64,000 nt of DNA from Planctomycetaceae bacterium. GTDB taxonomy: Bacteria > Planctomycetota > Planctomycetia > Pirellulales > UBA1268. Shown here piece by piece: positions 2,432 to 62,970 of this stretch (the stretch's first letter is position 1; each line of letters begins with the position of its first letter). A program made the position numbers and the translations under genes. The notes under the pieces were generated by a model. It saw only the letters and a list, made by a program, of their open reading frames with translations. It had not been told where the DNA came from and made no database searches. Where the stretch lies: assembly GCA_021300535.1 (NCBI GenBank), contig JAJTED010000014.1, positions 15,234-79,233 of the forward strand, written 5' to 3'.

Positions 2432-4873
2432 ATGATTCGCATCTTCCGCCCCGCCCGGCCGACGGCCCGCCGTAGCGGCACCGTTTCCCGGTCCCTGTTC
2501 AACGTGGGCCTGGAGCGGCTCGAGTCACGGCAGCTGCTGGCCGTGGACGTCACGACGCTCGCCGACTCCGGCGCCGGTTCGCTCCGCGCCGCGATCGCGG
2601 CGGTGAACTCGGGTGGCAAGGCCGACACGATCGTGTTCAAGAACCTCTCCGCCGGCACGATCTACGCCCTTTCGACCTTCCCCACGCTCGCCGTCTCCGG
2701 CACCAGCTTCCAGTTCTCCGGCACCACGACGGCGATCACGCTCGACGGCTCCGGCGCGGGCGCCGGCGGCGACGGCCTGATCATCGGCGCGGGTGTCAAC
2801 ACGATCGGCTTGAGCGGCATCGTGCTCACCATCCAGAACTTCGCCGAGAACGGCCTCTCGTTCGCGGGCGGCTCGACGGGCACGACGATCGACGGCATCG
2901 CGCTGCGGCTCAACGGCTTCAACGGCATCCAGTTCGCCGGCGGCAATTACTCGGGCACGACCGTCCGCAACACGCAGATCAGCGACAACGGCCGGGCCGG
3001 CATCGTCACCGCCGCGGCCGCCACCGGCCTGACGCTCGGCGGCACGCTCGCCAACCAGGGCAACAACATCTACGGCAACGGCACGCACGGCATCGAGCTG
3101 GCGGGCGGGGCCTACACCGGCTCCTCGATCGTCGGCAACCGGATCGTGGACAATGACCAGTGCGGCATCGCCACCGCCGGCGGCGTCTCCAGCCTGACGA
3201 TCGGCGGCACCACGGCGACCGCTGCCAACACGATCGCCATCAACACCGCCAGCGGCATCCAGCTCGGCCCCGGCAGCTACACGGGCACCACAATCCAGGG
3301 CAACACGATCTCGCTCAACGAGGCGGCGGGGTTCACCTTCGCCGTCGCGGGCGGATCGGCCACGGGCCTCACGATCGGCGGCACCGCGGCGGGGGCCGGC
3401 AACGAGATCAGCGGCAACGGCACCGCCGGCCTGCTCGTCTCCGCCGGCACCTACACCGGCACCCTCGTGCAGGGCAACTCGATCACGGGCAACACGACCG
3501 CGGGCGTGTCGCTGGCGCCCGCGGCGGCCGGCACCGTCTCCGGCCTCACGATCGGCGGCACGGCGGCCGGCACCGGCAACGAGATCGAGGCCAACGACGC
3601 CGTCGGCCTGCTCGTCGGCCCGGGCACCTACACGAGCACGCTCGTGCAGGGCAACACGATCCAGTCCAACGGCAGCCACGGCGTGAGCCTGGCGGCGGCG
3701 GCGGGCACGATCGCGTCGCTGACGATCGGCGGGAGCACGGCGGCCGCCAACACGATCACCGGCAACTCCGGCGACGGCGTCAACGTGGCGCCGGGCACGT
3801 TCACGTCCACCGCCGTGCAGGCCAATACGATCTCGTCGAACACCGGGGCCGGCGTGCGGCTGGCGCCCGGCGGCGGGAGCCTGGTCGGCCTGACCGTCGG
3901 CGGCACCACGAAGACCCCGCTCGGCAACACGCTCGTGGGCAACACGGCCGGCGGCGTGGTGGCCGAGGCCGGCACCTACACCGGCACGCTCGTGCAGGGC
4001 AACCAGATCAGTGGCAGCGCGGTGGGCGTCTCGCTGACCGCCGCCCAGGAGATCACCATCGGCGGCGCCACGTCCGACCTCGGCAACACCGTCACCGGGG
4101 CCACGACCCAGGGCCTGTTCGCCACCGGCACGCTGACGAAGGCCGCCGCGTCGTTCAATGTCCTCACCAACAACGCCACCGGCGCGGAGCTGCAAGACGC
4201 CACCGGCTTCACGTTCGGCAACACCGGCGTGGGCAACCGGATCACCGGCGGCAGCCGCGGCATCGTCGCCCGGGGCGTGCTCGACAACAGCCAGGTGCTG
4301 GGCAACACGGTCAGCGGTCCGGGCACCGGCATCCTGCTCGTCGACGCCCGCGGCTCCGCCTCGACGGCCCCGTTCCGCGTCGGCACGACCGCCACGGCCG
4401 CCGGCAACGGCGTGGGCAACAACGTCACGGCCACGACGCTCGGCCTGCACGCCCGCGGCGCCCTGGCCAACACGTTCGTCGCCGGCAACCTCTTCAAGGC
4501 CACGGCGGCCGGCGGCAACGGGGCGGCGCTGGTCAACGCCGCGGCCCTCACGCTCGGCGGATTCAACGCCGGCGACGGCAACATCCTCACGGCGGGCCTG
4601 GGCAACGGCCTGTACGCCACCGGCCTGTGCAACGGCACCCGCGTGTATCGCAACAACATCACCGCCAGCCAGTACGGCATCGTGCTCGACAGCGCCCGCA
4701 ACCTGTTCGTCGGCTTCCTCTACAACCCGGCGGTCGGGAATCTCGTGCAATACAACCAGGTGGGCCTGTTCACGACCGGCGTCAACACGGGCACGGGCGT
4801 GACCTACACGAATTGGTTCCGCAACGTCCGCCGGCAGATCAACGGCGGCAACGTCTTCATCTTCCCGGCGTGA
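2432..4873 (+). CDS. secreted right-handed parallel beta-helix repeat protein
   Basis: 813 aa, rich in Gly/Thr/Asn/Ala with many G.GN.I.GN coils. N-terminal LERLESRQLLA motif typical of planctomycete exoproteins. ATG at 2432. Confidence 0.75.
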   Translation: MIRIFRPARPTARRSGTVSRSLFNVGLERLESRQLLAVDVTTLADSGAGSLRAAIAAVNSGGKADTIVFKNLSAGTIYALSTFPTLAVSGTSFQFSGTTTAITLDGSGAGAGGDGLIIGAGVNTIGLSGIVLTIQNFAENGLSFAGGSTGTTIDGIALRLNGFNGIQFAGGNYSGTTVRNTQISDNGRAGIVTAAAATGLTLGGTLANQGNNIYGNGTHGIELAGGAYTGSSIVGNRIVDNDQCGIATAGGVSSLTIGGTTATAANTIAINTASGIQLGPGSYTGTTIQGNTISLNEAAGFTFAVAGGSATGLTIGGTAAGAGNEISGNGTAGLLVSAGTYTGTLVQGNSITGNTTAGVSLAPAAAGTVSGLTIGGTAAGTGNEIEANDAVGLLVGPGTYTSTLVQGNTIQSNGSHGVSLAAAAGTIASLTIGGSTAAANTITGNSGDGVNVAPGTFTSTAVQANTISSNTGAGVRLAPGGGSLVGLTVGGTTKTPLGNTLVGNTAGGVVAEAGTYTGTLVQGNQISGSAVGVSLTAAQEITIGGATSDLGNTVTGATTQGLFATGTLTKAAASFNVLTNNATGAELQDATGFTFGNTGVGNRITGGSRGIVARGVLDNSQVLGNTVSGPGTGILLVDARGSASTAPFRVGTTATAAGNGVGNNVTATTLGLHARGALANTFVAGNLFKATAAGGNGAALVNAAALTLGGFNAGDGNILTAGLGNGLYATGLCNGTRVYRNNITASQYGIVLDSARNLFVGFLYNPAVGNLVQYNQVGLFTTGVNTGTGVTYTNWFRNVRRQINGGNVFIFPA
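3026..4060 (+). repeat. intragenic tandem repeat, six units of 165-177 bp (55-59 codons)
   Basis: Unit starts (G/S-LT-I/L/V-GG) at 3026, 3191, 3365, 3542, 3716 and 3887. Similarity is visible at the DNA level. Confidence 0.6.
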
Positions 4874-4881
4874 GCCGGTGG

Positions 4882-5200
4882 CATGGACCACGGGGCGGCC
4901 TTCATGCCCGGTGTCCCCGGGTTTCCACCCGGGGCTTTTTGGGTCGCGCGCGTTACTCACACAAAAAGCCCCCGGCGGAAGCCGGGGGACTCCGGGTCGC
5001 ATCTCTTCCCGCTTGCTATGCGATGCGGGTTTGAACCGGTGCATCACCTGAAATCGTCCAGCATGGACCACGGGGCGGCCTTCGTGCCCGGTGTCCCCGG
5101 GTTTCCACCCGGGGCTTTTTGGGTCGCGCGCGTTACTCACTCAAAAAGCCCCCGGCGGAAGCCGGGGGACTCCGGGTCGCATGCAATCCCGCGTGCCATG
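4882..5200. repeat. family-1 REPIN, two tandem copies (180 bp period)
   Basis: Hairpin cores CCCCGGGtttccaCCCGGGG at 4915-4934 (second copy 180 bp downstream) and CCCCCGGCggaaGCCGGGGG at 4969-4988 (second copy 180 bp downstream). The arms are inverted copies separated by a 22 nt loop. Confidence 0.85.
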
Positions 5201-5271
5201 TCTTCCCGGTTTCCATGCGCTGCTCCACACGGAGCGTGCGAAAGCCGGCCGCCACCCTCTACACTTCCCGC

Positions 5272-6702: not shown

Positions 6703-6744
6703 CGTCGTCGTCGTGTCTCCTCCTGGAGCGGCGGTCTCTGGCCG

Positions 6745-6906
6745 TCGAATCCCCCGGCTCCCGCCGGGGGCTTTTTGTGATGCGGCCGCGCATGCCCCAA
6801 AACGATGCGGCCGCGCATGCCCCAAAACGGTGCGGCCGCATCCGCCCCAAGAAGCCCCGGGTGGAAACCCGGGGACTCCGGGCATGAAAACCACCCCGTC
6901 AACCAT
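6745..6906. repeat. family-1 REPIN (reverse orientation) with expanded loop
   Basis: Cores at 6751-6770 and 6855-6874. The loop carries repeated 25 bp GCGGCCGC-containing units. Sits between convergent genes. Confidence 0.85.
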
Positions 6907-6996
6907 GCCTTGTTCGCTGGTGTCAGCCCGAATGACCGGACAACGCGCACCATCAACACCCGCGGCTCGGGCGTGCAGGACACCGCTCGCCGCTCC

Positions 6997-9131: not shown

Positions 9132-9178
9132 CGACGGTCTCTGGCCGGATCGCGATTTGTCGATTCGGCCCTGCGGCG

Positions 9179-9590
9179 CATGGCACGCGGGATCGCGATT
9201 CGACCCGGTGTCCCCCGGCTCCCGCCGGGGGCTTTTTGTGGTGTCATACCGCCCGCCCCAAAACGGCGTGGCCGCGCGGGCCCCCAAAACCGTGCGGCCG
9301 CGGGCCCCCAAAACCGTGCGGCCGCGTGCCCCCAAAACCGTGCGGCCGCGTGGACCCCAAGAAGCCCCGGGTGGAAACCCGGGGACTCCGGGTATGAACA
9401 CCACCCCGTCATCCATGCTCAAACGCCCCGCGCCAGGGCTGCGTAACGTCCACATGCATGGCACGCGGGATCGCGATTCGACCCGGTGTCCCCCGGCTAC
9501 CGCCGGGGGCTTTTTGTGGTGTCGTACCGCCCGCCCCAAGAAGCCCCGGGTGGAAACCCGGGGACTCCGGGTATGAACACCACCCCGTTC
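9179..9590. repeat. family-1 REPINs, two copies (239 bp with 4 loop units; about 134 bp with none)
   Basis: Cores at 9212-9231, 9365-9384, 9490-9509 and 9544-9563. The first copy has four cccaaaac/GCGGCCGC loop units. Confidence 0.85.
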
Positions 9591-9691
9591 CCACTCTCTG
9601 AACGGGCCTCGGAGGCTAAACACCGCCCCCCTGTTCCAGGCCCCCCGCCCGGACGCTTGCGATTTCCCAGACTCCCGCTAAACTTCTGCCT

Positions 9692-10385: not shown

Positions 10386-10574
10386 GAAACACGATAGCCA
10401 CGGAACGGGCCCCATCAGCACGGATGCTGCCGCGGGACCTCCTCCGGGCATGGCCTTTTTCTGTCTTCACGTGGGCAAAGCCATCCCTGGCCTTTGCCCA
10501 CTTGGTCGGCCGGTGGAAAGGCAAGGCTTTCCACGGCCGACAAGCGTCGCCTCCTGCGACGCGCGATGGATGAC

Positions 10575-10795
10575 GGGGCGGCCTTCATACCCGGTGTCCC
10601 CGGGTTTCCACCCGGGGCTTCTCGGAGCCCGCGCGGCCACATCACAAAAAGCCCCCGGCGGGAGCCGGGGGACACCGGGTCGAATCGCGATCCCGCGTGC
10701 CATGCGTGTGGGCGTTGCGCAGCAAGAGCGCGGGGCGTTTGAGCATGGATGACGGGGCGTCCTTCATACCCGGTGTCCCCGGGTAACACACCTCC
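10575..10795. repeat. family-1 REPIN plus a truncated second copy, upstream of the RAYT-like gene
   Basis: Cores at 10608-10627 and 10662-10681. The partial copy at 10754-10795 is cut inside its first hairpin. Confidence 0.8.
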
Positions 10796-10838
10796 CCACT
10801 CTCTATGCCTCACGGCCGCGCACCCACGACGTGCCACC

Positions 10839-10864
10839 TTGTAAAAACTGTACGCCTGTACAAT
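10839..10864 (+). promoter_or_regulatory. AT-rich promoter-like palindrome upstream of the RAYT-like gene
   Basis: TTGTAAaaacTGTACgccTGTACAAT, with TTGTAA at 10839-10844 and TACAAT at 10859-10864. The spacer is only 14 nt. The ATG lies 10 nt after TACAAT. Confidence 0.25.
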
Positions 10865-10874
10865 ATTTGCGCCC

Positions 10875-11372
10875 ATGCCACACGAACCCGGTTCCGTCAT
10901 CCGCAACAATCCGTTGGCGTTCTTCCTCACGTGGACGACCTACGGTTCGTGGCTCCCCGGCGATGCCCGCGGTTGGACTGATCATCGTGGGACGATCCGT
11001 GACCCGAACCCGCGATTGAGGCGGATTGCCACGGGATCCCTGAAGCGCGAGTCGGTCGTTCTTGGCCCCACTGACCGCGACCAGGTCGAACAGGCCATCC
11101 GTGAACACTGTCGCTTTCGAGGCTGGCATCTGCTGGCTGCCAGTTGTCGTTCGACACACGTGCATGTTGTGGTCGCGGCCGAGAATCGCCGGCCCGAAGA
11201 GGTCTTGCGGTCCCTCAAGGCGTGGTGTTCGCGGCAGCTTGCCGCTCGCGCTATGTGTTCAACGTCGAGGTGGTCGCGCGGCGGCAGCGTGCGGCGGCTG
11301 TATGAATCGCGAGATGTCGAGGCCGTGGTGGTGTATGTCGCAGAACTTCAGGACAGGCCGCGAGACGGGTAA
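10875..11372 (+). CDS. REP-associated tyrosine transposase-like protein (Y1/HUH, IS200-like fold)
   Basis: 165 aa with HUH motif STHVHVVV, C-terminal Tyr in VVVYVAELQ, and N-terminal FLTWTTYGSWLPGDARGW. Flanked by REPINs rather than IS ends. Confidence 0.62.
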   Translation: MPHEPGSVIRNNPLAFFLTWTTYGSWLPGDARGWTDHRGTIRDPNPRLRRIATGSLKRESVVLGPTDRDQVEQAIREHCRFRGWHLLAASCRSTHVHVVVAAENRRPEEVLRSLKAWCSRQLAARAMCSTSRWSRGGSVRRLYESRDVEAVVVYVAELQDRPRDG

Positions 11373-11382
11373 CGCACCCATG

Positions 11383-11852
11383 CATGGCACGCGGGATCGC
11401 GGTTCGACCCGGTGTCCCCCGGCTCCCGCCGGGGGCTTTTTGTGTGCGGCCGAGCACGCTCCAAAACGGCGTGGACGCGCGGGCACCCAAAACCGCGCGG
11501 CCGCGCGGGCACCCAAAACGGTGCGGCAGCGCAAAACCCAAGAAGCCCCGGGTGGAAACCCGGGGACTCCGCGCGTGAACACCACCCCGTCAACCATGCT
11601 CCAAACGCCCACCCGACCGCTCCGCAACGCACCCATGCATGGCACGCGGGATCACATGCGACCCGGTGTCCCCCGGCTCCCGCCGGGGGCTTTTTGTGTG
11701 CGGCCGAGCACGCCCCAAAACGGCGTGGACGCGCGGGCACCCAAAACCGCGCGGCCGCGCGGGCACCCAAAACGGTGCGGCAGCGCAAAACCCAAGAAGC
11801 CCCGGGTGGAAACCCGGGGACTCCTCGCATGAACACCACCCCGTCAACAATG
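11383..11852. repeat. family-1 REPINs, two tandem copies (255 bp period), downstream of the RAYT-like gene
   Basis: Cores at 11416-11435, 11546-11565, 11670-11689 and 11800-11819. Orientation is opposite to the upstream copy. Confidence 0.85.
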
Positions 11853-11902
11853 CTCCAAACGCCCACCCGACCGCTCCGCAACGCCTGGCTCCCGCCCGGC
11901 GA

Positions 11903-12193
11903 TCAGCGGCCGCAGCCTTGGCAGCCGCCGGCGCACTTGCCGTTGCACGAGCCGGCGTCGCCCAACTCCTTCTTGTAGGCCTTCTGGGCCGCTGCCTCCT
12001 TCGAGAGTTTGAACTCGGGGCCGGCAGGGAAGTATTGGATGTCGTCCTGCAGGTAGTAGGCGCTCGGCAGCGTCTGGCCGCCGACGTCCACTTGGCAGCC
12101 CGTCAGCGAAAGCCCGCCCAACGCGGTGGCGGCCAGCAACACACGGCACAGGCCGCGGCGAGCGAAACGTCGGGTGATGCGGGATGCTGTCAT
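11903..12193 (-). CDS. small lipoprotein with Cys-rich C-terminal tail
   Basis: 96 aa from ATG 12193. Signal peptide plus lipobox (LSLTGC). Tail is GSCNGKCAGGCQGCGR. Confidence 0.55.
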   Translation of the reverse strand: MTASRITRRFARRGLCRVLLAATALGGLSLTGCQVDVGGQTLPSAYYLQDDIQYFPAGPEFKLSKEAAAQKAYKKELGDAGSCNGKCAGGCQGCGR

Positions 12194-12386
12194 GGCTCTC
12201 GTCCGGAAGCGGGTACGGGATCGAACGCATCCCACGTATCGACCGGCGCAACCCGCAAACTTTGAACGACCCGTACGACCGGCCGAAAAGCGGCGCCCCC
12301 TCCGCCGCCCGATCGCCCATCCTTCCCAAACCTCCACCCGCCGCGTCCCCACCGCCGCGTCGCCGAAACGTGTACAACATTCCTCC

Positions 12387-15381
12387 ATGACCCCGCCTTC
12401 CGCCGTCCGCCACGGCCTGCCGGTCGCCGCAGCCGTCGCCTGCCTGCTCGCCGTGGCGGCCCGCGCCCAGGTCGTGTTACCGCCCGGGCTGGGGCAGGTT
12501 CCCGACGGCCAGATCGTGCCCACCGCCGCCTACGACCTCGCCTTGCAGGCACTCGCGGAAGGCAACTATTCCGGCGGCCTCGAGATCGCGGGCCGCGAAT
12601 ACCAGGGCGGCGTCCGGGTCGGCGCCCAGCGCTGGATCGACTCTATCGCATCGGCCGCGGTCGTGGGCGAATGCCGCTACGAGCTCGGCAGCTACCGCGA
12701 GGCGATCGCCGCCTACGAGGAGGCGTTGCTCCTCGCGGCCAACCATCCCGACTGGCTGGTTTCAGTGCAGTGGCCCCCGCAGCCGCTGCAGCCGCGGGCC
12801 GGGCGGCCGGTCGCCACCTGGGGCCGCAGCCAGCGCGGCGCGCGACCCGCGCAGCTGCCGGAAACGATCGCCATCCGCCGCGCCGGAGCCGATCCGCAGG
12901 AAGTGCTGCAGCGCGGCGGCGTGCTCGTGGCGCCGGCCGACTACCCGATTCGGCCGCAGGAGATCTTTCGGTCGCTCGAGATCGCGATCTACCGCCATGC
13001 CGAGATCCTCGGCGAGCTCGCCCGCGAGAGCCCGGCGATCGACACCGTCGCGAAAGCGCTGGTCCGCCGCGGCGCGCCGCCCAACCATTATTCGCAGGCG
13101 TGGATCGACGTGACGCTCGGCACGGCCTACTGGGTGCAGGGCAAGTCCGACCTCGCGCTGCCGCTGCTCAATCGCGGCCTGCTCATCGGCGAGGGGCTCG
13201 ACCATCCACTCACGGCCTGGGGCCTGATCGTCCTCGGACGGATCGCGCTCGCGTCCGACCAGGCTGCCGCCGCCGCGAAGCTCTTCGAGGAGGCCACCTA
13301 CGCTGCCGCCGACCACGGCGACGCCCGGGCCTTGGAAGAGGCGTTTCGCTTCGCCTTCACCGCCCACATGCTGGCCGGCACGCGTGGCGTGCCGCCGGCG
13401 ATCCGCGCGGGCTGCTCTTGGGCACAGGCCAACCTGCCGATGCTGGAGGTGAATCTCCTGGCGATGCAGGCCGAATGCCTCGCGGCTGCAGGCGAGGTGC
13501 GGCAGGCGGTGGCGGCGGTGAAGGAGATCGACGGCCGGCTGCTGCGCGGCGATCCGGGCCGCGGCCGTCCGGGGGCGCTGGCGGCCTATGCCGCCGCCAC
13601 GGTGAAGCACGCCGCCGGCGATACGGCCGCGGCCGACGCCGACCTCAACCGCGCGATTGCCATCGAGCGGTCCCGGTCGCCGCGGCTCTTCCAAACGACC
13701 AGGCTCGTGGAGTTCGCCGTCGCCGGGTCGAGTCTCGTCTCCGACCGCGAGGCCGACGGGCTGTTCGCGCGGCTGCTCGGCGACCCGACGGCCCGCGAGT
13801 TCGCCGCCGATCCGCTCGGCGCGCTGGCCGTCATCTCCACGCCCCGCACCGACGCCTTCGAGACCTGGGTCGAGGTGGCCGGCCGCCGCAGCAACGACGC
13901 GGCGCTCGAGGCGCTGGAGGCCACGGCCCGCGACCGCTGGCTGGCGGCGCAGCGGCTCGGCGGCCGCCCGATCGCGATCCAGCGGCTGCTCGGCACCGAT
14001 CCTCAAGATCTGCCGCCGGCCGAGGCGGCCCGCCGCGCGGCGGTTCTGGCCCGGTATCCGGAGCTCGCGGCCCTGCTCGACAAGCTCACACAGGTGCGCA
14101 CCGCGGTCACCGCCGCGGTCACCGCCGCCGCCGTGCAGCGGCCGGCGGGAGCCGCTGGCAAGCCGGTGCTGCCAGGCGCCGCGGCCGACTGGGAAACCTA
14201 CCGTGCGCTCGCGGCGCGGCTCGAGCAGTTCGTGGCCCGGATCGCGGCCGGCCGCGACTTCGCGCCGCTCGACTTCCCGCCGCGGACCGCCGCCGCCGAG
14301 ATTCGCCGCCGGCTCGCGCCCCGGCAGTTGATGCTGTCGTTCCACTGGACGAAGGCCGGCCTGTTCGGCGTGCTCGAATCCCGCGACCGCGCGGCCTTCT
14401 GGCAGGTGCGGCAGATCGCGGGCCTGCCCCGGGCCATGCAGGACCTCGCCAAGGCGCTGTGCCTGTTCGACCCGATCGCGCCGGTGCCCACCGATCGGCT
14501 CGTGGAGAGCGAGTGGCGCGGCGCCGCGGCCCAGGTCGAGCGCATCCTCCTCGAGAACTCGAAGATCACGCTCGCCGAGGGCATCGACGAGCTGGTGATC
14601 GTGCCCGACGGGCTGCTGTGGTATCTGCCGTTCGAGCTGCTGCCGGTCGCGTCGAACCGCCCCGGCGATCCCGACGCCGGCCAGACGAAGCTCCTCCGCG
14701 AGGTGTGCCGGATTCGCTACGCGCCCACCCGCAGCCTGGGCGTGATGCGGTTCGCGCCGCGGCAGCCCGGCGGGCCGGTCGGCATCCACGCCGGCCGGAT
14801 GTTTCGCGGCGACAAGGCCGACGACATCGCGGCCCTGCTCGAGCGGCTGACGGCGGCGGTGGAGCGCGCGGCCGCTGATCCAGCCCGCGGCAGGCACCGG
14901 CGGCATGACGTTCGGCGACTGGCTGGCCCCGCCGCTGAAACGCACGCGACGGATCCTCCTGCCCGGGCTGCAGACGGCGCTGGCCGGCGGCCTGGCGAAG
15001 CTGCCCGCCCGCGCCGGCGAAGACGTGTTCATCGCCGCCACCGATCTGCTCGCGGCAGGCAGCCAGACGGCGGTCGTGAGCCGCTGGCGGATGGGAGGCA
15101 AGGTGGCGGCCGACCTGATGGCGGAGTTTCTCCGCGACGTGACCGCTGCCAGCCCCGATGGGGCACCGCCCGCGGCGGCGGCGAGCTGGCAGCGGGCGAT
15201 CGACGTGGCGACGGCCGAAGAGCCCGATCCCGAGCGCGAGCCGCGGCTCAAGCCGGTGGCGAAGGCGGTGTTGACCGACGCGAAGCACCCGTTCCTGTGG
15301 GCGGGCTACATGCTCGTCGATTGCGGTCCGGGCACGTATGCCGATCCGCCCCCCGCGCCCGCCGTGCAGCCCGCGCGGTGA
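12387..15381 (+). pseudogene. CHAT-like domain protein, reading frame broken near 14851-14905
   Basis: Signal peptide at ATG 12387. CHAT-type motifs (VIVPDGLLWYLPFELLP; C-terminal HPFLWAGYMLVDCG) are split between frame 0 and the +1 frame (ORF 14905..15381). The 1414-aa track ORF is a high-GC read-through. Confidence 0.6.
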
Positions 15382-15398
15382 GGTCGCCCGCCGTCCCC

Positions 15399-16370
15399 AT
15401 GCCGCTCATCGCCACTCTCGATGCCCTGCAAGGCTATGCCATCCTCGCGGTGGCCGCGCTAGTGGCCGGGGCCGTGAACTCGTTCGCCGGCGGGGGCACG
15501 ATCCTCACCTTTCCCGTCCTGGGCGCGATTCTGCCCGACCTGCCGGGCCGCCTCGTCACGGCCAACGCCACGAGCACGATCGGTCTCTGGCCGGGCGCGG
15601 CGACGGCCGCCTGGGCCTACCGCGGCGAACGGGCCGACCTCCCGGCGTGGGCCCGCTGGCTCGTCGTGCCGAGCGTGGCCGGCGCGATCGTCGGCACGGC
15701 GCTCGTGCTCGTGCTGCCGCCCGAGTGGTTCGACGCCCTCGTGCCCTGGCTGATCCTCGTGGCCGCGGTGCTGTTCGCATGCCAGCCCCGGCTGGCTGCG
15801 ATGGGAACGAGTCGAGAGCAGCTCCCTCTCCCTCTGGGAGACGACCCCGGTCAGACAAAAATCCGCCCGCTCCCTCTGGGAGACGACCGTGATCCGACAA
15901 GACATCTCCCTCTCCCTCTGGGAGAGGGCCGGGGTGAGGGTGCCCCGGCGTTGCCCACCGCCCCTGCCGCATCACCTCACGTCCTGCAGCCCACCGCCCC
16001 CGCCCGCATCGCCCTGGCCTGCGGCCTGCAGTTTCTGGTGAGCGTGTACGGCGGCTACTTCGGCGCCGGCATCGGGATCCTGATGCTCGCGGTGCTGGGG
16101 ATGCTCGGCCTTGGCGACATCCATCGGCTCAACGGCGTGAAGAACGTGCTCGGCACGGTGGTCAACGGCGTGTCGGCCGCGGTGTTCGCCCTTGGCGCGC
16201 TGGCCGGATGGCACGCGGTCTCCTGGCCGCACGCGGCCGTGATGGCGGTGGCGGCGACCGTCGGCAGCCTCGGGGCCTCGCATCTGGCCCGCCGCCTGCC
16301 GGCCCGCATCGTCCGCCGCGGTGTGGCCCTGATCAGCTTCGCCCTCGCCGCCTACTATTTTCTCCGGTAG
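15399..16370 (+). CDS. TauE/SafE (DUF81) family anion exporter
   Basis: 323 aa from ATG 15399. Multi-TM protein with AGAVNSFAGGGTILTFP and VYGGYFGAGIGILML motifs. The central loop carries repeat-derived codons. Confidence 0.8.
   Translation: MPLIATLDALQGYAILAVAALVAGAVNSFAGGGTILTFPVLGAILPDLPGRLVTANATSTIGLWPGAATAAWAYRGERADLPAWARWLVVPSVAGAIVGTALVLVLPPEWFDALVPWLILVAAVLFACQPRLAAMGTSREQLPLPLGDDPGQTKIRPLPLGDDRDPTRHLPLPLGEGRGEGAPALPTAPAASPHVLQPTAPARIALACGLQFLVSVYGGYFGAGIGILMLAVLGMLGLGDIHRLNGVKNVLGTVVNGVSAAVFALGALAGWHAVSWPHAAVMAVAATVGSLGASHLARRLPARIVRRGVALISFALAAYYFLR
15822..15945 (+). repeat. family-3 palindromic element (LPLGEGRGEGA element), two partial copies plus one full copy, inside the TauE CDS
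   Basis: CTCCCTCTCCCTCTGGGAGAGGGCCGGGGTGAGGGTGCCCC at 15906-15945. Partial copies start at 15822 and 15870. The core is a 9 bp stem with a 3 nt loop. Confidence 0.7.
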
Positions 16371-16391
16371 CCACTCCGCAACGCCCTCATG

Positions 16392-16514
16392 CATGGCCCA
16401 CGGGATCGTGCGCGACCCGGTGTCCCCCGGCTCCCGCCGGGGGCTTTTTGTGCCCAAGAAGCCCCGGGTGGAAACCCGGGGACTCCGGGCATAAACACCT
16501 CCCCGTCATCAATG
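16392..16514. repeat. family-1 REPIN (123 bp, no loop units)
   Basis: Cores at 16424-16443 and 16462-16481. A degenerate remnant follows at about 16547-16583. Confidence 0.85.
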
Positions 16515-16702
16515 CCCGAAACGCCCACACAACCACTCCGCAACGCCCACATGCACGACCCACGGGATCGTGCGCGCTTCATGCCCCAAAGATCACATCC
16601 ACCCGCATTCGACGGTCTCTGACCGCCGCTCCACCTTCGGTCGAACACCGCCGCTATAACTTCGGTCATACACCGTCACTTGAACCACGTTCCTGGCACC
16701 TG

Positions 16703-17584: not shown

Positions 17585-18336
17585 TCTGGAACACGTCGAT
17601 CTGGAAGAAGACCTGGGGCGATCAGCGGCTGCTGTTCCTCTCCATGGCGGCGCTGTGGGGAGCGTTTCCGTGGCTCTATCTCTGGCTCTCGGCACAGATT
17701 CCGATGCCGGCCTTCCAGGAGGTGCTGCTGCGGGCGATCCCCGCCGACTGGCAGAAGCTCTCGGGCGTGCCGTTCTCGGAGGTGGCCACGCACGCCGGCC
17801 GCGTGGCGCTGGCATTCGTCGATCCGGTGGTGGTGCTCGCCGCCACGGTGTGGGGCATCACCCGCGGCAGCGACGCCGTCTCGGGGCCGCTGGAGCGGGG
17901 CACGATGGAGATGGTGCTGGCGGCTCCGGTGCGGCGGTCGGCGCTGTTCCTCACACAGGCCCTTGCCACCACGGCCGCCGCGGCGCTGCTGTGTGGCGTG
18001 CTCCTGGCGGCGGTCTGGTCGGCCGTGGCGTTCGGACCGTGGGCGGGGAAGGTCGATCCGGCCCGGTTCGTGCCGGCGGCGGCGAACGTCTTCGGGCTGA
18101 TGGTGTGTGTCGCGGGGATCACGGCCTGCGTGTCGGCGGCCGACAGTTACCGGTGGCGCACGGTCGGGATCTTGTGCGGGTTCTACGTGTTCTCGATCCT
18201 GGCCAAGCTCGTGGGCCGGTTGAGCGGGCCGCTGTGGTGGGTGGGCGGGCTGTCGATCCTCAATGCCTACGAGCCGCAGCGGCTGGCCGCCGCGACCTTG
18301 GCCGTGGCGCACGCCTCCAGGCGTGCGAATCGATGA
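17581..18336 (+). CDS. ABC-2 type transporter permease
   Basis: 251 aa multi-TM protein with PLERGTMEMVLAAPVRR motif. ATGA overlap with the ATPase stop. The last 9 codons lie inside a family-2 REP arm. Confidence 0.72.
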
Positions 18337-20138: not shown

Positions 20139-20189
20139 GTCATACGTGCTAGCGCCCGTGGGTTATTGGGAACACGCACACGACACGCC

Positions 20190-20395
20190 CACAAAAAGCC
20201 CCCGGCGGGAGCCGGGGGACTCCGGGTCACCTGCCTCCCCGCTCACAATGCACCACGGTTTCGAGCCACGAAATCACCTGCCGTCGTGCGGCATGGATGA
20301 CGGGCTGGTTTTCGGACCCGGTGTCCCCGGGCTCCCGCCCGGGGCTTCTTGGACCACGCGCATCACCCACACAAAAAACCCCCGGCGCCTCGGGC
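20190..20395. repeat. family-1 REP hairpins (two clear, one degenerate)
   Basis: Cores at 20199-20218 and 20325-20344. A degenerate copy lies at 20371-20395. Confidence 0.8.
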
Positions 20396-21106: not shown

Positions 21107-21184
21107 GTGGCGCATGCCTCCAGGCATGCGAATGGGCCCCTGCGCACCCAAACCCTCATTCGCACGCCTGGAGGCGTACGCCAC
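21107..21184. repeat. family-2 REPIN, second copy
   Basis: GTGGCGCATGCCTCCAGGCATGCGAAT at 21107-21133 and ATTCGCACGCCTGGAGGCGTACGCCAC at 21158-21184. Confidence 0.78.
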
Positions 21185-21945
21185 AAAAAGCCCCCGGCGG
21201 AAGCCGGGGGACTCCGGGTTGCACGCCTTCCCAGTTGCCATGCTGCGCGGGCTTGAACCGGCAAAGCACCTGCCGTCATGCGGCATGGATGGCGGGATGG
21301 TTTTCGGACCCGGAGTCCCCGGGCTCCCGCCCGGGGCTTCTTGGACCGCCCCACGAAAACTCCGGCCGGGCGTGACGACCGCAACTCCCTTGAGGCCACG
21401 CGCACCACCGCCCACAAAAAGCCCCCGGCGGAAGCCGGGGGACTCCGGGTCACCTGCCTCCCCGCTCACAATGCGCCACGGTTTCGAACCACGAAAGCAC
21501 CTGCCGTCGTGCGGCATGGATGACGGGCTGGCTTTCGGACCCGGAGTCCCCGGGCTCCCGCCCGGGGCTTCTTGGAACACGCACGCCACCCACACAAAAA
21601 GCCCCCGGCGGGAGCCGGGGGACTCCGGGTTTCACCCGTTCCCAGTTGCCATGCTGCGCGGGCTTGAACCGGCAAATCACCTGCCGTCGTGCGGCATGGA
21701 TGGCGGGATGGCTTTCGGACCCGGTGTCCCCGGGCTCCCGCCCGGGGCTTCTCGGAACACGCACGCCACCCACACAAAAAGCCCCCGGCGGAAGCCGGGG
21801 GACTCCGGGTTGCACGCCTTCCCAGTTGCCATGCTGCGCGGGCCTGAACCGGGAAAGCACCTGCCGTCGTGCGGCATGGATGACGGGCTGGCTTTCGTGC
21901 CCGGAGTCCCCGGGCTCCCGCCCGGGGCTTCTTGGACCACGCACG
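21185..21945. repeat. tandem array of family-1 REPINs (8 hairpin cores, 180 bp period)
   Basis: Cores at 21191, 21317, 21422, 21548, 21602, 21728, 21782 and 21908 (each 20 nt). The intervening sequence is also conserved. Confidence 0.85.
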
Positions 21946-29456: not shown

Positions 29457-29767
29457 CTTCCCCGCAGCCGTCCGTGGCCGACGCCATCGCATCCGCGATC
29501 CGCACCGTGCTTCATGACACGGGCCGCGACGCCAAGGCCGTTGAGCCTACGATGCTCCTGGCCGCCGACCTCGGGCTCGACTCCCTCGACCTCGCCCAAA
29601 CGATCGTGCTCCTGGAGCGGTCGCTGGGCATCGACCCATTCCGCCAAGCTCCTGCCGCCGGCGGCCGGCCCGCCATCCGCACCGTCGCCGACCTGATCAC
29701 CATCTACACCTCCGCCCTCCCCTCTCCTTCTCCCCCTCCCTCTCCCTCTGGGAGAGGGCCGGGGTGA
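29453..29767 (+). CDS. acyl carrier protein
   Basis: 104 aa with phosphopantetheine site DLGLDSLD. ATGA overlap with the upstream stop. The C-terminal tail and stop codon lie inside a family-3 element. Confidence 0.75.
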   Translation: MTSPQPSVADAIASAIRTVLHDTGRDAKAVEPTMLLAADLGLDSLDLAQTIVLLERSLGIDPFRQAPAAGGRPAIRTVADLITIYTSALPSPSPPPSPSGRGPG

Positions 29768-29776
29768 GGGTGCCCC
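29736..29776 (+). repeat. family-3 palindromic element at the 3' end of the ACP gene
   Basis: Identical 41-mer CTCCCTCTCCCTCTGGGAGAGGGCCGGGGTGAGGGTGCCCC. Read here in its only stop-containing frame (TGA at 29765-29767). Confidence 0.75.
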
Positions 29777-31168: not shown

Positions 31169-31197
31169 CCCCTGTAGCGGCGGTCTCTGACCGTCGT
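31169..31197 (+). repeat. hairpin element CCCCTGTAGCGGCGGTCTCTGACCGTCGT, left copy
   Basis: Perfect 29 bp direct repeat with 31659-31687. The core is an imperfect 8 bp palindrome (CGGCGGTC tct GACCGTCG, one mismatch). Confidence 0.8.
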
Positions 31198-31344
31198 GCC
31201 TCTCCCTTTAGCGTCACCTCGCCGTGCCTCATGCCCGATTGCCGGGAAGCCCGAAGCGCGAGCTGAGGGAATACGCGTCAATCCGCCGACCGCCGTTCCG
31301 GTCGCGTCTCGATTCTTCGCCACTCCACCGCGTAAAATCCGTCA

Positions 31345-31593: not shown

Positions 31594-31680
31594 ATGCCTG
31601 TCTTCGGCCCAGTGTCACGCCGGGTCGTAATCTCCCTCGTCTCTGACCGTCGTTCCTCCCCCTGTAGCGGCGGTCTCTGA
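31594..31680 (+). pseudogene. possible truncated hicA remnant
   Basis: MPVFGPVSRRVVISL resembles a HicA N-terminus (MP..P.VS.revi.aL). It then runs into hairpin-element copies and a stop. Confidence 0.3.
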
Positions 31681-31687
31681 CCGTCGT
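31659..31687 (+). repeat. hairpin element CCCCTGTAGCGGCGGTCTCTGACCGTCGT, right copy
   Basis: Identical to 31169-31197. An additional partial copy lies at 31638-31653. Confidence 0.8.
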
Positions 31688-31690
31688 TCT

Positions 31691-32491
31691 GTGCGTTCCG
31701 TGATCTCGCTCATCTCCGGCGGCTCGCGTGGCCTCGGCCTGGCGATCGTCGAGCGGCTGCTCGCCCGCGGCGATCGCGTGGCCACGTTCTCCCGCTCGGG
31801 CTCGCCGGCCCTCGCCGCACTCGCCGCGGCGCACCCCGATCGGCTGCACGCCGAATCTCTCGACGGCAGCGACTCGGCCGCGGTGATCGGCTTCGTGGGC
31901 CGGGTCGTGGAGCGGTTCGGCGGCCTCGATCACTGCATCGCGAATGCGGCGATCGCCCACGAGGGCGTGCTGGCGACGATGCGTGACGACGAGATCGACT
32001 CGCTGCTCACGGTGAACGTAAAAGCCTCGATCGTGCTCGTCCGCGAGTGCCTCCGCCAGATGCTCGCCCGCTCCCCGGCCCCCAGAAGCGAGCCGAAACA
32101 CTCCCCTCTCCCTCTGGGAGAGGGTGGCCGAAGGCCGGGTGAGGGTGCCCCGCCCGCCTCCATCACCGTCATCTCCTCGATCGTCGCCTCCCGCGGCTCC
32201 CCCGGCCTCGCCGTCTACGCCGCCACGAAAGCCGCGCTCGAAGGCTTCGCCCGCAGCCTCGCCCGCGAGGTGGGCCTGCGCGGTATCCGCGTCAACGCGA
32301 TTGCCCCCGGCTTTCTGGAAACCGACCTTTCGGCAACGCTCTCCGCCGACAACCGAGCCCGCCTCGCCCGCCGCACGGCCCTGGGCCGGCTCGGCACCAC
32401 CGCCGACGTCGTCGGCGCCCTCGAGTTCTTAACCAGTCCCCGCGCTGCCTTCATCACCGGCCAAGTGCTCACGATCGACGGCGGCAACTGA
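31691..32491 (+). CDS. SDR-family oxidoreductase (FabG-like ketoreductase)
   Basis: GTG start. Motifs ISGGSRGLG, NAAI, YAATKAAL and NAIAPGF. A roughly 28-codon insertion carries a family-3 element. Confidence 0.85.
   Translation: MRSVISLISGGSRGLGLAIVERLLARGDRVATFSRSGSPALAALAAAHPDRLHAESLDGSDSAAVIGFVGRVVERFGGLDHCIANAAIAHEGVLATMRDDEIDSLLTVNVKASIVLVRECLRQMLARSPAPRSEPKHSPLPLGEGGRRPGEGAPPASITVISSIVASRGSPGLAVYAATKAALEGFARSLAREVGLRGIRVNAIAPGFLETDLSATLSADNRARLARRTALGRLGTTADVVGALEFLTSPRAAFITGQVLTIDGGN
32101..32151 (+). repeat. family-3 palindromic element inside the SDR CDS
   Basis: CTCCCCTCTCCCTCTGGGAGAGGGtggccgaagGCCGGGTGAGGGTGCCCC, translated as SPLPLGEGGRRPGEGAP. Confidence 0.72.
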
Positions 32492-44422: not shown

Positions 44423-45648
44423 AAATCCTCGTCGTCGCCGACTACTTCTTTCCCTGCCAGCCCGGCGGGCTCGCGCGGGTGGCGTGGGATGTTGCCCAGG
44501 CACTCGCCCGGCGCGGCCACGACGTCGAACTCGTGGCTGCGGGCGCGGGCGACAGCGCGGCCTCGACGACAACCACGGTTGTCGAAGGTGTGTTATGCCA
44601 CCTGTTTCGCAGGCCGCTTTTCGCTAACTGGGATCCAAGGCGATTGACCGCCGCAGTGGCGGCCTACGCGGGGCAGGTAAGCAGAGCGCTCGCCGGGAAA
44701 CAATTTGACGTTATTCACTTCCACAGCATCTTCACGGGCGCCGCAGTGCTGCGGGCGATGAAGCAAGCGCCCCAACGGGCTGCCTTGGTTTACACTGTGC
44801 ATTCGCCGGTCGTTCAGGAACAGCGGCTCACGTGGTCGCAGCAGGGCCTGGTGGGCTTCGTCAATCAGGCCGTCGGGATCCCGGTGGCGCGGCGGATGGA
44901 GCGGCGGCTCCTCGCGTGCGCCCATGCCACCCACGTTCTCTCCCGATTCACGGCCAATGAGCTCGCCCGAGAACATCCGCAGGTACGCTTCCCGTGCCAA
45001 CTGATTCCGCACTTCTTCTACGGCGAGTGGCGGAGGCGGCTGACCAGGGCCGAAGCCCGGAGCCGACTTGGCTGGCCGTCGAACCGGCCCGCTTTATTCA
45101 CGGTTAGGCAATTGCGGCACCGGTATGGCATCGACGACGCCATCACCGCCGTGGCTCCACTGGCGGCTGCAGGGCGGTGCACGTTTCACATCGCTGGTGA
45201 CGGGCCCAACATGGGCAAACTCCGTACGCAAATCGACGACAGCGGGTGCCGTGAATCGATCACACTTATGGGGCGGCTGCCAGATGACACTCTGCAGGTC
45301 GGGTATCAGGCGGCAGATCTCTTTCTCTTGCCGACACGCGCCTTGGAGTGCTTTGGGCTCATCAGCCTCGAGGCGATGAGTTTCGGTCTTCCCGTGCTCG
45401 GCACCAACGTTGGCGCGATTCCCGAGGTGATTGGTCCGGTTTTGCCAGGTTTTCTGAGTCCGCCGGGTGACCCAGAGGCTTTTCGTGCGAAAATCACCGA
45501 CTATTTGGACGGCCGAATTATTCCTCCAGCGGAAGAAGTCATTCGCGGCCATGTCACAGCCAACTATTCCGAGTTAGCCGTGATGACGCAGTATGAACTG
45601 CTCTACGAACGCGCCCGTGCAACAAAGGCCAAGTTGCCCACCTCGTGA
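44419..45648 (+). CDS. glycosyltransferase family 4 (GT-B)
   Basis: 409 aa with KILVVADYFFPCQPGGLARV and a C-terminal E..G...LEAMS.G.PV motif. ATGA coupling to the upstream gene. Confidence 0.85.
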   Translation: MKILVVADYFFPCQPGGLARVAWDVAQALARRGHDVELVAAGAGDSAASTTTTVVEGVLCHLFRRPLFANWDPRRLTAAVAAYAGQVSRALAGKQFDVIHFHSIFTGAAVLRAMKQAPQRAALVYTVHSPVVQEQRLTWSQQGLVGFVNQAVGIPVARRMERRLLACAHATHVLSRFTANELAREHPQVRFPCQLIPHFFYGEWRRRLTRAEARSRLGWPSNRPALFTVRQLRHRYGIDDAITAVAPLAAAGRCTFHIAGDGPNMGKLRTQIDDSGCRESITLMGRLPDDTLQVGYQAADLFLLPTRALECFGLISLEAMSFGLPVLGTNVGAIPEVIGPVLPGFLSPPGDPEAFRAKITDYLDGRIIPPAEEVIRGHVTANYSELAVMTQYELLYERARATKAKLPTS

Positions 45649-59680: not shown

Positions 59681-59858
59681 GCTTCTGTTCGCTGTGACGC
59701 TTGTTAGTGCAACATACGTTCTGTAAATCGCCGGTGCGTGCCTGACCGAGGCGAGCGCAAGCGAGCCGAGGGAAGGCACGCACCGGCGGCCCGAGTTGAA
59801 GAGGTGGGCCATCGAGGTTTTCTTGGAAGTGTCTTACGCCAACAAGAAGGAACCTGCG

Positions 59859-60284
59859 ATGACCCACCAAGACGAATGCCCAGCCATCAACGACCTCACA
59901 GCCCTGCTCATTGAGCACGGCCCAGCTGCCATGGCCTCTGCCCTCGGCACGCTCATGAATCACGCGATGCAGATCGAGCGTGAGCAGGTGCTGCAGGCCG
60001 AGTCTCATCAGCGAACTGCCGATCGTCAAGGCTACGCCAATGGATTCAAACCCAAGACCCTGAAGACCCGCGTCGGCCGGCTCGACCTGCGGATCCCGCA
60101 GACCCGCGATTACCGCGACGAGAACGGGCGCCCGTTCTACCCCCGGGCCCTCGAGCGGGGCGTCCGCAGCGAGCGGGCGATGACACTTGCTGTCGCCGAG
60201 ATGTACGTCCAGGGCGTCAGCACCCGGAAGGTCACGGCGATCGTCGAGGAGCTCTGCGGCCTCGAGATCACCTCGACCCAGGTA
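59859..60284 (+). pseudogene. IS256-family transposase, 5' part (interrupted by IS630)
   Basis: GYANGFKPKTLKTRVGRLDLRIPQTRD...AEMYVQGVSTRKVTAIVEELCG. The frame resumes at 63973 as SRAAAELDE. Confidence 0.78.
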
Positions 60285-60385
60285 ATACGGCCCCCACTTG
60301 AGACCTGCGCGCCTCCGCCCTGCTTTCCCATATTGCGCCCTCTGCCTGCCGATGGGATGATGCGGCCCCCAGACAAGGAGGCCGC

Positions 60386-60481
60386 ATGGATGTCCCCGAA
60401 CGGAAGCGTGGTGATCGGCGCAGGCTTGCTCGCCTGATTGCCAAAGAATCGGACGCGGTGCAGCGGGATTGTGAACGCCGG
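60386..60481 (+). pseudogene. IS630 orfA, 5' segment
   Basis: AAGGAGG then ATG at 60386 (MDVPERKRGDRRRLARLIAKESDAVQRDCERR). Joins in-frame to 62971 once the IS21 element and one CCGG copy are removed. Confidence 0.7.
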
Positions 60482-60596: not shown

Positions 60597-61370
60597 TCAG
60601 GACGGGCCAGAGGCCCGTCGTTGCCGCCTGCGGGCGTCCCGAAGGCGGAAGCTCTCGCCCTTCGCCTCGAGGATGTGGCAGCGGTGCGTGAGGCGATCGA
60701 GTGCGGCTCCGGTGAGCCGTTCGCTGCCGAGCACCTCGGTCCACTGCTCGAAGGGCAGGTTCGTGGTGACGATCAGACTTTGCCGCTCATAGGCCGTGCT
60801 CAGGACGTCAAAAAGCAGCTCGGCCCCTACCTTCCCGGTCGGAACGTAGCCCAATTCGTCAAGAACGATGAGGTCGAGCTGCTTGATCTGCTTGCGGAAC
60901 CGGAGGAGCTGCTTCTCCTCCTTGGCTTCCATAAGCAGCGTGATCAGTTCAGTCACCCGAAAGAACCGCACCTTCCGGCCCTGTCCGCAGGCGGCGAGGC
61001 CCAGGGCGATGGCCAGATGGGTCTTGCCCACGCCGCTGGAGCCGATGAGTAGGACATTCTCGCGGTCATCGATGTACTGCCCCTTGGCCAGTTCGAGCAC
61101 CAGAGGCTTGTTGATCGAGGGCTGCTGGCCGAAGTCGAACTCGTCGAGGGTCTTCGTCTGCGGGAAGCGGGCGGCCTTCAGCCTCCGTTCCACCGCCCGT
61201 CGCTCCCGCTCGATCAGCTCCAGTTCACAGAGCCGCTGCAGGTAGGCGAGGTGATCGAGGTTCTCCACCGCCGCCCGGGAAGCGACCTTGTCGCACTCCT
61301 GTGACATGGTCGGCAGCTTGAGTGCCTTCAGGTGATGCTTCACGAGCACCGTGCTCTTGGTCGTGCTCAT
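60597..61370 (-). CDS. istB: IS21 helper ATPase IstB
   Basis: 257 aa from ATG 61370. Walker A GSSGVGKTH and Walker B LIVLDELG. ATGA overlap with the istA stop. Confidence 0.9.
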   Translation of the reverse strand: MSTTKSTVLVKHHLKALKLPTMSQECDKVASRAAVENLDHLAYLQRLCELELIERERRAVERRLKAARFPQTKTLDEFDFGQQPSINKPLVLELAKGQYIDDRENVLLIGSSGVGKTHLAIALGLAACGQGRKVRFFRVTELITLLMEAKEEKQLLRFRKQIKQLDLIVLDELGYVPTGKVGAELLFDVLSTAYERQSLIVTTNLPFEQWTEVLGSERLTGAALDRLTHRCHILEAKGESFRLRDARRRQRRASGPS

Positions 61371-62872: not shown

Positions 62873-62970
62873 TCCTCGTGCCTCGCTCTCGGTAAAGGGG
62901 AAATCGCGGCTCCGCCGCGATTCTCCTCACCGATATCGCTGCACAGTTGTGCGCTGCATTTTTCGACCGG

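Follow-up and report, generated by a model that had tools for sequence, protein, structure and literature searches.

A probable REPtron of the class 3 TnpA_Y1 kind in a planctomycete: an HUH/Y1 gene amid inverted and dispersed REP hairpins

The stretch of DNA analysed here (hereafter the window) comprises 64,000 nucleotides (nt) from a Planctomycetaceae bacterium (contig JAJTED010000014.1, positions 15,234 to 79,233). On its plus strand, at 10875-11372, it carries a gene of 165 codons for a protein resembling the RAYTs (REP-associated tyrosine transposases), that is, an endonuclease with a histidine-hydrophobic-histidine (HUH) motif and a single catalytic tyrosine (Y1), and this gene is bracketed by inverted copies of a repetitive extragenic palindromic (REP) hairpin. 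In our view the whole probably represents a class 3 TnpA_Y1 REPtron, in which the gene, single-copy and inherited vertically, codes for an HUH/Y1 endonuclease-ligase of single-stranded DNA (ssDNA) and lies amid its cognate REP hairpins. This view is carried by the fold and motifs of the protein, the association of gene and repeat throughout its family, the dispersal of the repeats without the gene, compensatory changes in the hairpin stems, and synteny combined with purifying selection.

The partnership between RAYTs and REPINs (REP doublets forming hairpins) is the best-studied case of a domesticated transposase sustaining non-coding replicators in bacterial genomes, and what is known of it is almost entirely proteobacterial. 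The present survey adds a large family, a near-universal gene-repeat association in Planctomycetota, and repeats that range from weak looped hairpins to perfect terminator-like ones. It also provides tractable protein-REP pairs for asking how Y1 enzymes without a GTAG guide recognise their substrates, and leaves the concept itself unchanged.

The protein, its family and its class

The two motifs expected of a Y1 HUH enzyme are both found in the 165-aa (amino acid) protein: STHVHVVV (T94-H95-V96-H97), in which H95-V96-H97 form the HUH, and VVVYVAELQ (Y154-V-A-E-L-Q159), in which Y154 is the catalytic tyrosine. The Pfam model Y1_Tnp (PF01797) matches it with 26.6 bits, above the gathering cut-off of 23; the NCBIfam models for IS200/IS605 transposases (NF033573) and for REP_Tyr_transpos (NF047646) fall short of theirs, with 26.5 bits against 55 and 18.9 bits against 80, respectively. 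The protein is thus an HUH/Y1 enzyme, as an initial annotation made from the sequence alone had proposed, and it belongs neither with the canonical RAYTs nor with the IS200 transposases.

A homology search returned 783 relatives, mostly of 160-180 aa; the automatic names that some of them bear ('RayT', from a COG name, or 'transposase') were given no weight as evidence. When 38 relatives are aligned, the residues H95, V96, H97, K115, R120, W133, S138, R140, Y154, V155 and Q159 are invariant, as is an N-terminal block W20..Y23..W26..G29-D30..R32-G33-W34 (W-x2-Y-x2-W-x2-GD-x-RGW); the invariant residues at this end run from A15 to W34, and the family profile has 164 positions. W133 is followed by threonine in most relatives and by serine in the window protein. 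The consensus around the tyrosine is YVxECQ, its fifth residue being C or L and not E. Y1_Tnp matches 35 of the 38 relatives, while the NCBIfam IS200 model matches all of them weakly and the RAYT model 33 of them, also weakly. The family is large, since a profile search of 1.84 billion representative sequences retrieved 3,868 clusters (at 50% identity) with E-values of 1e-3 or below, including 2,101 at 1e-10 or below.

An AlphaFold (AF2) model built on the 38-relative alignment has a mean predicted local distance difference test score of 85.9 and shows the secondary-structure order beta-alpha-alpha-beta-beta(HUH)-alpha-beta-alpha(Tyr). In a Foldseek comparison with the PDB, the top 30 matches are exclusively Y1 HUH enzymes (the TnpA proteins of ISDra2, IS608 and IS200, and the E. 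coli RAYT 4er8), with a probability of 1.00; the E-value is 4e-5 for ISDra2 TnpA and 1.8e-4 for 4er8. PDB searches by sequence, with either the protein or the family profile, found nothing relevant, so that the link to the Y1 transposases of known structure is made through the comparison of folds only.

Three classes of Y1 HUH proteins were distinguished by Quentin et al. 2018 (BMC Genomics 19:475; PMC6006769): class 1 (IS200/IS605), class 2 (RAYT/TnpA_REP) and a 'previously unknown' class 3. The last contained 24 proteins, 11 of them from Planctomycetes, with the motifs NHVH, W[TA] and YV[VI][AENY]EQ (Y----Q), a profile of 155 aa in which conservation reaches further into the N-terminus, and 178 aa as their mean length; ADG69454.1, ABJ83664.1 and ABQ56422.1 are among its members. 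The hairpins that these authors reported alongside class 3 genes, several per gene, are 'atypical' in being weak and interrupted by an internal loop; they have a CnGA foot and a high copy number, and the class was likened both to insertion sequences (IS) and to REPtrons (PMC6006769). The family described here fits this class: the protein has xHVH in T94-H95-V96-H97, the Y----Q spacing, W133 followed by T or S, conservation over a profile of some 155-164 positions and a length in the range of about 165-178 aa, its hosts are mainly planctomycetes, and hairpins that flank the gene also lie elsewhere in the genome. The repeats agree as well, since the REP of P. limnophilus given in the published Table S1, CACGAGCCGGAAGCGTGAGCGACGGGT (PMC6006769), matches the consensus of our family at 16 of 20 positions and adopts the same fold, (((...((....))..))). 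We therefore assign the family to class 3 on the basis of motifs, host phylum and REP design.

It follows that a planctomycete version of such a system, which the initial annotation had taken to be new, is not new in kind, class 3 having been described mainly from Planctomycetes and with hairpins flanking its genes (PMC6006769). Tagged REPs had also been reported in the Planctomycetes-Verrucomicrobia-Chlamydiae (PVC) group by Di Nocera et al. 2013 (PMC3733652). What is particular to the clade of the window is the perfect terminator-like hairpin together with the long composite doublets, both of them derived features, as are the minisatellites of 24-26 nt in the spacers. A literature search for experimental tests of class 3 proteins found no paper.

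REP units, inverted doublets and their association with the gene

The window has a G+C content of 65.7% overall, and of about 70% up to 32 kb. It contains 28 full REP units of about 62-85 nt, distributed over eight intergenic sites between 4.9 and 22 kb. A 30-nt REP pattern has 26 matches in the window, compared with none in 100 dinucleotide-preserving shuffles, and no match lies past 22 kb in these 64 kb. Read on the strand of the T-tail, a unit starts with a GCATGG... head of some 35-50 nt, (CTCCGCAACGCCCAC)ATGCATGG..., continues through ACCCGG[T/A]GT into an 8-bp GC stem, whose two complementary arms enclose the 4-nt loop T[T/C/G]CC, and ends in the tail CTT[T/C]TTG. The stems of the window are of three types, namely A (CCCCGGGT), A' (CCCCGGGC) and B (CCCCCGGC). 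On the T-tail strand the foot reads G[TA]GT, on the other AAAG or GAAG, and a GT[AG]G (GTAG) foot is lacking; CCGA is found near only two of the 28 units (at 10598 and 21728), the usual sequence being CAAAAAG or CAAGAAG.

When the units of the window are taken together with those of related metagenome DNA (304 units), four stem variants are observed, all perfectly complementary, and the 8-bp stem is perfect in 279 of the 304; at its positions 5, 7 and 8 the two sides have thus changed together. The folding energies of whole REPINs are not far from those of shuffled GC-rich sequence (z of -1.4 and -2.5), so that they are weak evidence, and the compensatory stem variants are better. An Rfam search of the window gave no matches.

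REPINs are here inverted pairs of units, mostly with tails inward, about 160-250 nt long and with arms of about 85 nt. The spacers between unit ends measure 0-105 nt (up to 133 nt between hairpin stems), and four of them contain a minisatellite of 24-26 nt in 2.4-3.5 copies. Over the eight sites there are 13 tail-to-tail pairs, with unpaired end units at 20185-20358 and in the array at 21177-21941. Arrays, tandem or alternating, have a period of 180 at 4873-5210 and 21177-21941, and of 254 at 11371-11884.

Upstream of the gene, a REPIN at 10556-10713 joins A(+) (10556-10631) to B(-) (10638-10713), tails inward, across a 6-nt spacer. Downstream, a first copy at 11374-11607 starts with B(+) only 2 nt past the stop codon and leads through a spacer with a 26-nt minisatellite (11461-11532) to A(-); a second copy at 11628-11861 is its tandem duplicate (period 254, 96% identity). 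The flanking doublets are mutually inverted, A then B on the upstream side and B then A on the downstream side, so that their gene-proximal B units bracket the gene as a 74-nt inverted repeat of 95% identity (10643-10716 and 11371-11444). The flanking copies and their opposite orientation had both been recognised in the initial annotation, and on these points we agree with it. It had also called a truncated copy, at 10754-10795; this element, at about 10745-10795, is real, but the description that suits it better is that of a REPIN remnant (10728-10826) that has lost its interior. An A(+) head and 5' half-stem (to 10784) are joined at CCGGGT to an A(-) head, and the deletion, between two CCGGGT repeats, has removed both hairpins and spacer. 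In the ortholog at 87% identity (locus L093), the homologous A(-) head abuts the promoter-like stretch described below.

The six further intergenic sites that had been claimed within the first 22 kb are all present. They comprise two tandem REPINs of period 180, downstream of a gene for an 813-aa repeat protein (4873-5210); a REPIN between convergent genes, with a diverged left unit head and a 25-nt minisatellite (6779-6850) in its spacer (6709-6916); two REPINs, the first with a minisatellite of 24 nt in 3.5 copies at 9275-9360 (9170-9605); a short REPIN with overlapping tails, downstream of a TauE-like gene (16382-16523); a head-to-head pair, B(-) then A'(+) (20185-20358); and an array of eight alternating units (21177-21941), about 3 copies of its period plus extra units, which resembles the bacterial interspersed mosaic elements (BIMEs). 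All REPINs lie between -6 and +11 kb of the Y1 gene. This spacing need not mean that REPINs cluster around the gene, since a glycosyltransferase island of lower GC content takes up the window past 32 kb and the sites found in metagenomes are widely dispersed.

Does the association of gene and repeat extend beyond this one locus? Scanning the GTDB species genomes brought up at least 539 loci with a gene for a relative, and the flanks of the 80 best (L001-L080) were analysed. Nearly all of these 80 bear the label Planctomycetota, among them Pirellulales, Planctomycetales, Isosphaeraceae and isolates (Blastopirellula marina, for example), with a few records of metagenome-assembled genomes under other labels, and the closest of them is at 67% identity. 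We compared the 500 nt upstream with the 500 nt downstream, counting repeats of at least 40 bits, at the 68 loci where each side offered 300 nt or more. A shared repeat was found at 63 of them (93%), whereas the same threshold was reached by 3.7% of 4,556 flank pairs from different species and by 1.9% of 429 pairs taken within a locus more than 1 kb from the gene. Many loci contain extra copies of their flank repeat elsewhere in the 20 kb or less available, up to 15 of them (L053, L076). The architecture proposed initially, that of a REPIN-RAYT system, therefore holds in so far as an HUH/Y1 gene sits within inverted and dispersed REP doublets, at 63 of 68 loci as compared with 2-4% in controls, but not in the sense of a canonical RAYT, given the 18.9 bits out of a required 80, the Y----Q motif and the missing GTAG foot.

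The flank repeat itself differs between clades, and the more alike two proteins are, the more often their loci share it: in 0.5% of cases or fewer when protein identity is below 50%, and in 81% when it is 70% or higher. In most distant relatives, variants of GCCCGAAGCG-CAAG-CGAGGG adjoin the gene, commonly as inverted pairs on both sides; the REP consensus found beside the gene in most of L001-L080 has the weak looped fold already mentioned, and both its design and this fold are those of the published P. limnophilus REP. The perfect GC hairpin of the window type is found in relatives at 56-99% identity (L001, L007, L093, L097, L098). One of these, L007, also carries CCCCTCGC-TGCC-GCGAGGGG, which bridges the weak-looped and perfect-GC designs.

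The repeats also occur without the gene. A pattern scan of JGI metagenomes found at least 118 REP-bearing stretches (835 kb; at least 109 distinct clusters) with 237 REPs, and none of the stretches listed encodes the Y1 protein or overlaps the window. Within the window, the 68 nt at 9177-9244, from the B unit of the first REPIN of their site, are 99% identical to 10639-10706, from the B unit upstream of the Y1 gene. In L093 the gap after the TauE-like gene is about 35 nt and lacks the REPIN found at 16382-16523. The near-identical unit pair, the empty TauE-like site and the more than 100 metagenome sites together point to a fairly recent spread of REPs. We also attempted to derive the ends of a REPIN from the empty site of L093; the boundaries could not be placed, the intergenic DNA being too diverged.

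A second role is suggested by the position and shape of the hairpins. Every REP site is directly 3' of at least one gene, and at seven of the eight the first unit begins 0-117 nt past a stop codon. A terminator search called all 14 B cores and two A cores as terminator-like, with 37 sites in total as compared with 7.5 expected. A hairpin with a T-run behind it has the canonical form of an intrinsic terminator, and here this form is present on either strand; the doublets therefore probably double as bidirectional intrinsic terminators or as stabilisers of mRNA 3' ends, and such a role would help to explain why they are retained. The minisatellite units in the spacers (11493-11508 and 11747-11762, minus strand) form a small hairpin of their own, CCGCGCGGCCGCGCGG, followed by TTTTGGG, so that the long REPINs carry extra terminator-like modules.

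A resident gene and the competing explanations

The identical protein is encoded on 15 metagenome contigs, and the ten contexts shown are all alike, with an mraZ-like gene upstream and/or a gene for a 96-aa protein downstream. The 87% ortholog is syntenic and likewise REPIN-flanked, and comparison with it gives a dN/dS ratio of 0.22, indicative of purifying selection. Two more distant relatives from another lineage, P0008 and P0010 (about 60% identity), lie in a different context that is conserved between them. None of the 80 loci contains a second copy, and tblastn found no homologue on plasmids.

Upstream of the ATG there is also an AT-rich stretch (10839-10864, plus strand; TTGTAA ... TGTAC..TGTACAAT), belonging to a conserved element that extends to 10874. 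It is shared by the window, L093, L001 and L007 (four of six orthologs), with TTGACA as the -35 hexamer in two orthologs, and is absent from L097 and L098, where the tail of a REP abuts the ATG. A strict consensus promoter scan did not call it, but it is promoter-like and may serve as a promoter. Since this element, which has a TGTAC..TGTACA motif, directly precedes an ATG that lacks a Shine-Dalgarno sequence, the transcript would seem to be leaderless or nearly so, and is possibly regulated. The common context, the syntenic ortholog, the one copy per locus, the absence of plasmid homologues, the selection on the protein and the conserved promoter-like stretch all indicate that, over the contigs and loci compared, the gene behaves as a resident and not as a multicopy IS.

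How might such a system work? By analogy with E. coli TnpA_REP and with the TnpA proteins of IS608 and ISDra2, the protein would bind the REP hairpin in ssDNA; Tyr154 would cut beside the hairpin, with a metal held by His95 and His97, forming a 5'-phosphotyrosine link; and rejoining of the DNA would allow REPs or REPINs to be excised, copied or inserted in trans.

Several points weigh against the REPtron interpretation and should be kept in mind. Both catalysis on REPs and the mobilisation of REPINs are taken over from the analogy just given. The Y1 gene has a G+C content at third codon positions (GC3) of 0.70 (63.5% G+C overall), compared with a GC3 of 0.84-0.97 in its neighbours; a gene that is long resident, syntenic and held by purifying selection would not usually stand out in this way. 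Common descent of the loci is a confounder in the increase of repeat sharing with protein identity. In L097 and L007, every REP within the 20 kb examined adjoins the gene, so that the copy number elsewhere may be low in some genomes. Over 20 kb, a contig of 167 kb (L081) is 99.97% identical to the window (875-21336), and no REPIN insertion or excision distinguishes the two; their sole REPIN difference is that L081 has one copy of the 254-nt downstream doublet and the window two. The second copy is likewise lacking in L088 and L091 and present in L082-L084, and such a change in copy number could be explained by slippage or unequal recombination without a transposase. Finally, class 3 membership was assigned from published descriptions, and the REPs of the window clade differ from those descriptions in two respects: the 8-bp GC stem is perfect and has no internal loop (-11.8 kcal/mol, as opposed to about -2 to -4), and the CnGA foot is replaced by CAAR-AAG (the T-tail as read on the other strand).

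Among the alternatives, the one that survives best is that of an autonomous IS of the IS200/IS605 type, whose gene-less doublets would be non-autonomous derivatives, comparable to miniature inverted-repeat (MITE) or palindrome-associated (PATE) transposable elements, moved by ordinary transposition. The Y----Q motif is indeed nearer to IS200 than to the Y..NP of RAYTs, the NCBIfam score is slightly higher for IS200 than for RAYT, Foldseek places ISDra2 TnpA just above the RAYT, the GC3 of the gene is below that of its host, and long direct repeats flank the gene in many relatives. In the published account, class 3 has traits of IS as well as of REPtrons, and three copies that are close relatives occur in Solibacter (PMC6006769). 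We nevertheless regard this explanation as unlikely: the gene keeps its context on all ten contigs shown of the 15, its synteny is conserved in the 87% ortholog and within the P0008/P0010 pair, it occurs once per locus in 80 loci, with no tnpB partner and no plasmid copy, its flanking elements are inverted doublets and not left and right ends on the same strand, and it is missing from all 118 of the REP-bearing metagenome stretches listed.

A second possibility is that the gene is a relic, kept for some other role in ssDNA, such as replication-fork processing or repair at REP hairpins, with the REPs as its binding or cleavage sites and the REPINs immobile. Purifying selection and synteny are compatible with this, as is the lack of any transposition-type polymorphism between the two nearly identical strains. 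For E. coli TnpA_REP itself, we know of no demonstration of transposition in vivo, only of cleavage and strand transfer in vitro, which also counts in favour of a relic. Immobile REPINs are harder to reconcile with units that are 99% identical at separate sites, with the REPIN after the TauE-like gene that the 87% relative lacks, and with more than 100 distinct sites in related metagenome DNA, and we consider the relic quite improbable. Very improbable indeed is the view that the hairpins are ordinary terminators or 3'-UTR (untranslated region) stabilisers spread by recombination or gene conversion, with the Y1 gene as a bystander: their cores look like textbook terminators and are placed 3' of genes and their only strain polymorphism is a tandem copy-number change, but a bystander would not be associated with clade-specific repeats at 93% of 68 loci from different assemblies, and no terminator needs a conserved head of about 40 nt, inverted doublets or alternating arrays of up to eight units.

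A wider scenario can be entertained, although only tentatively. Class 3 REPtrons may be phylum-wide and largely vertical in Planctomycetota (in hundreds of species), with REPs that co-diverge by clade; in the freshwater Pirellulales-like clade of the window, the REP would have been remodelled into a strong T-tailed hairpin, so that a domesticated Y1 endonuclease would now be seeding bidirectional terminators. Were this true, it would offer the clearest system outside the Proteobacteria in which to study REPIN-RAYT co-evolution and exaptation.

Neighbouring features and comparison with known systems

Some other features of the window deserve mention. The 813-aa protein encoded directly upstream of the first REPIN pair (2432-4873) has no Pfam match; its gene is built of tandem coding repeats of 174-177 nt and has a GC3 of 0.97. 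Two other indels relative to the metagenome contig L081 (99.97-100% identical) were considered as REPIN events and rejected, since what the window is missing there is coding DNA: 110 nt at 14867, inside a TPR/CHAT gene (the comparison with L091 gives the same result), and 181 nt at 18286, comprising the 3' end of an ABC-2 permease gene and the intergenic DNA after it. The first deletion shifts the frame and so produces one apparent open reading frame of 1414 aa (12126-16370) that spans the CHAT and TauE-like regions. Both are either real deletions of this strain or errors of assembly.

There are two further dispersed repeats. One, CTCCCTCTCCCTCTGGGAGAGGGCCGGGGTGAGGGTGCCCC, is found at 15822-15946, 29736-29776 and 32091-32121, and also in L093; it forms a 42-nt tandem array within the TauE-like frame, and a 41-nt copy 13.8 kb away is 100% identical. 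The other, CCTGTAGCGGCGGTCTCTGACCGTCG, is found at 6722-6759, 16610-16675, 31171-31208, 31661-31698 and 45056-45093; it adjoins REPINs at two sites, and a related 25-nt tandem repeat occupies 16622-16675. In the second half of the window (32000-64000), the G+C content falls from about 70% to about 60%, GC3 is lower and REPs are absent. This part encodes glycosyltransferases of families 1 and 2, a PglD-like acetyltransferase, an AAA_14/DUF4143 ATPase and a 1417-aa TPR protein, together with a fragment of a Mutator-family transposase (59727-60437) and a Mu-type transposase (61367-62926, minus strand), and looks like a horizontally acquired island for polysaccharide synthesis.

Returning to the REPtron, its differences from published class 3 systems are not confined to stem and foot. 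The REPs of the window have conserved heads of about 40 nt and are organised in doublets and alternating arrays with minisatellites in their spacers, and the scale is different as well, with 24 published proteins as compared with the at least 539 genome loci and 3,868 clusters found here.

The E. coli REPtron (TnpA_REP, RAYT group 2, PDB 4er8) is similar in that a single-copy Y1 HUH gene is bracketed by inverted REPs, in its alternating arrays of the BIME kind, in the position of REPs 3' of genes, with the potential to terminate transcription or stabilise mRNA, and in the fold of the protein. Class 2 enzymes cleave at CT or CA under the guidance of a tetranucleotide that lies 5' of the hairpin (Corneloup et al. 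2021; PMC8266576). The window system, on the other hand, has no GTAG guide, has Y----Q in place of YxxxNP, and its units are much longer and have no bulge in the stem. Canonical RAYTs in general also share the single-copy, REP-flanked gene and the dispersal of REPs without it, while their tyrosine motif is Y(I/V)xxNP and not YVAELQ, a difference reflected in the score of the RAYT model, which is far below its cut-off.

The REPIN-RAYT system of P. fluorescens SBW25 (Bertels and Rainey 2011; group 3) is similar in several ways: the inverted REP doublet is the repeated unit, the gene is flanked by its own REPINs, the stems are perfect palindromes, and the elements are extragenic and form tandem clusters. 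It differs in the class of its protein and in the length of its REPINs, about 100 nt as compared with 160-250 nt in the window, where spacers with variable minisatellites and T-tails are also found.

As for the IS200/IS605 family, IS608 and ISDra2 TnpA are the best structural matches (TM-scores, i.e. template modelling scores, of 0.57-0.65 when normalised by the target), with the same HUH, the same single tyrosine on a C-terminal helix and a glutamine after it, and their recognition of subterminal hairpins in ssDNA serves as the model for the mechanism proposed above. The window system is distinguished from them by its one syntenic copy, by the lack of left and right ends on the same strand and of TnpB, and by its score with the IS200/IS605 model, less than half of what that model requires.

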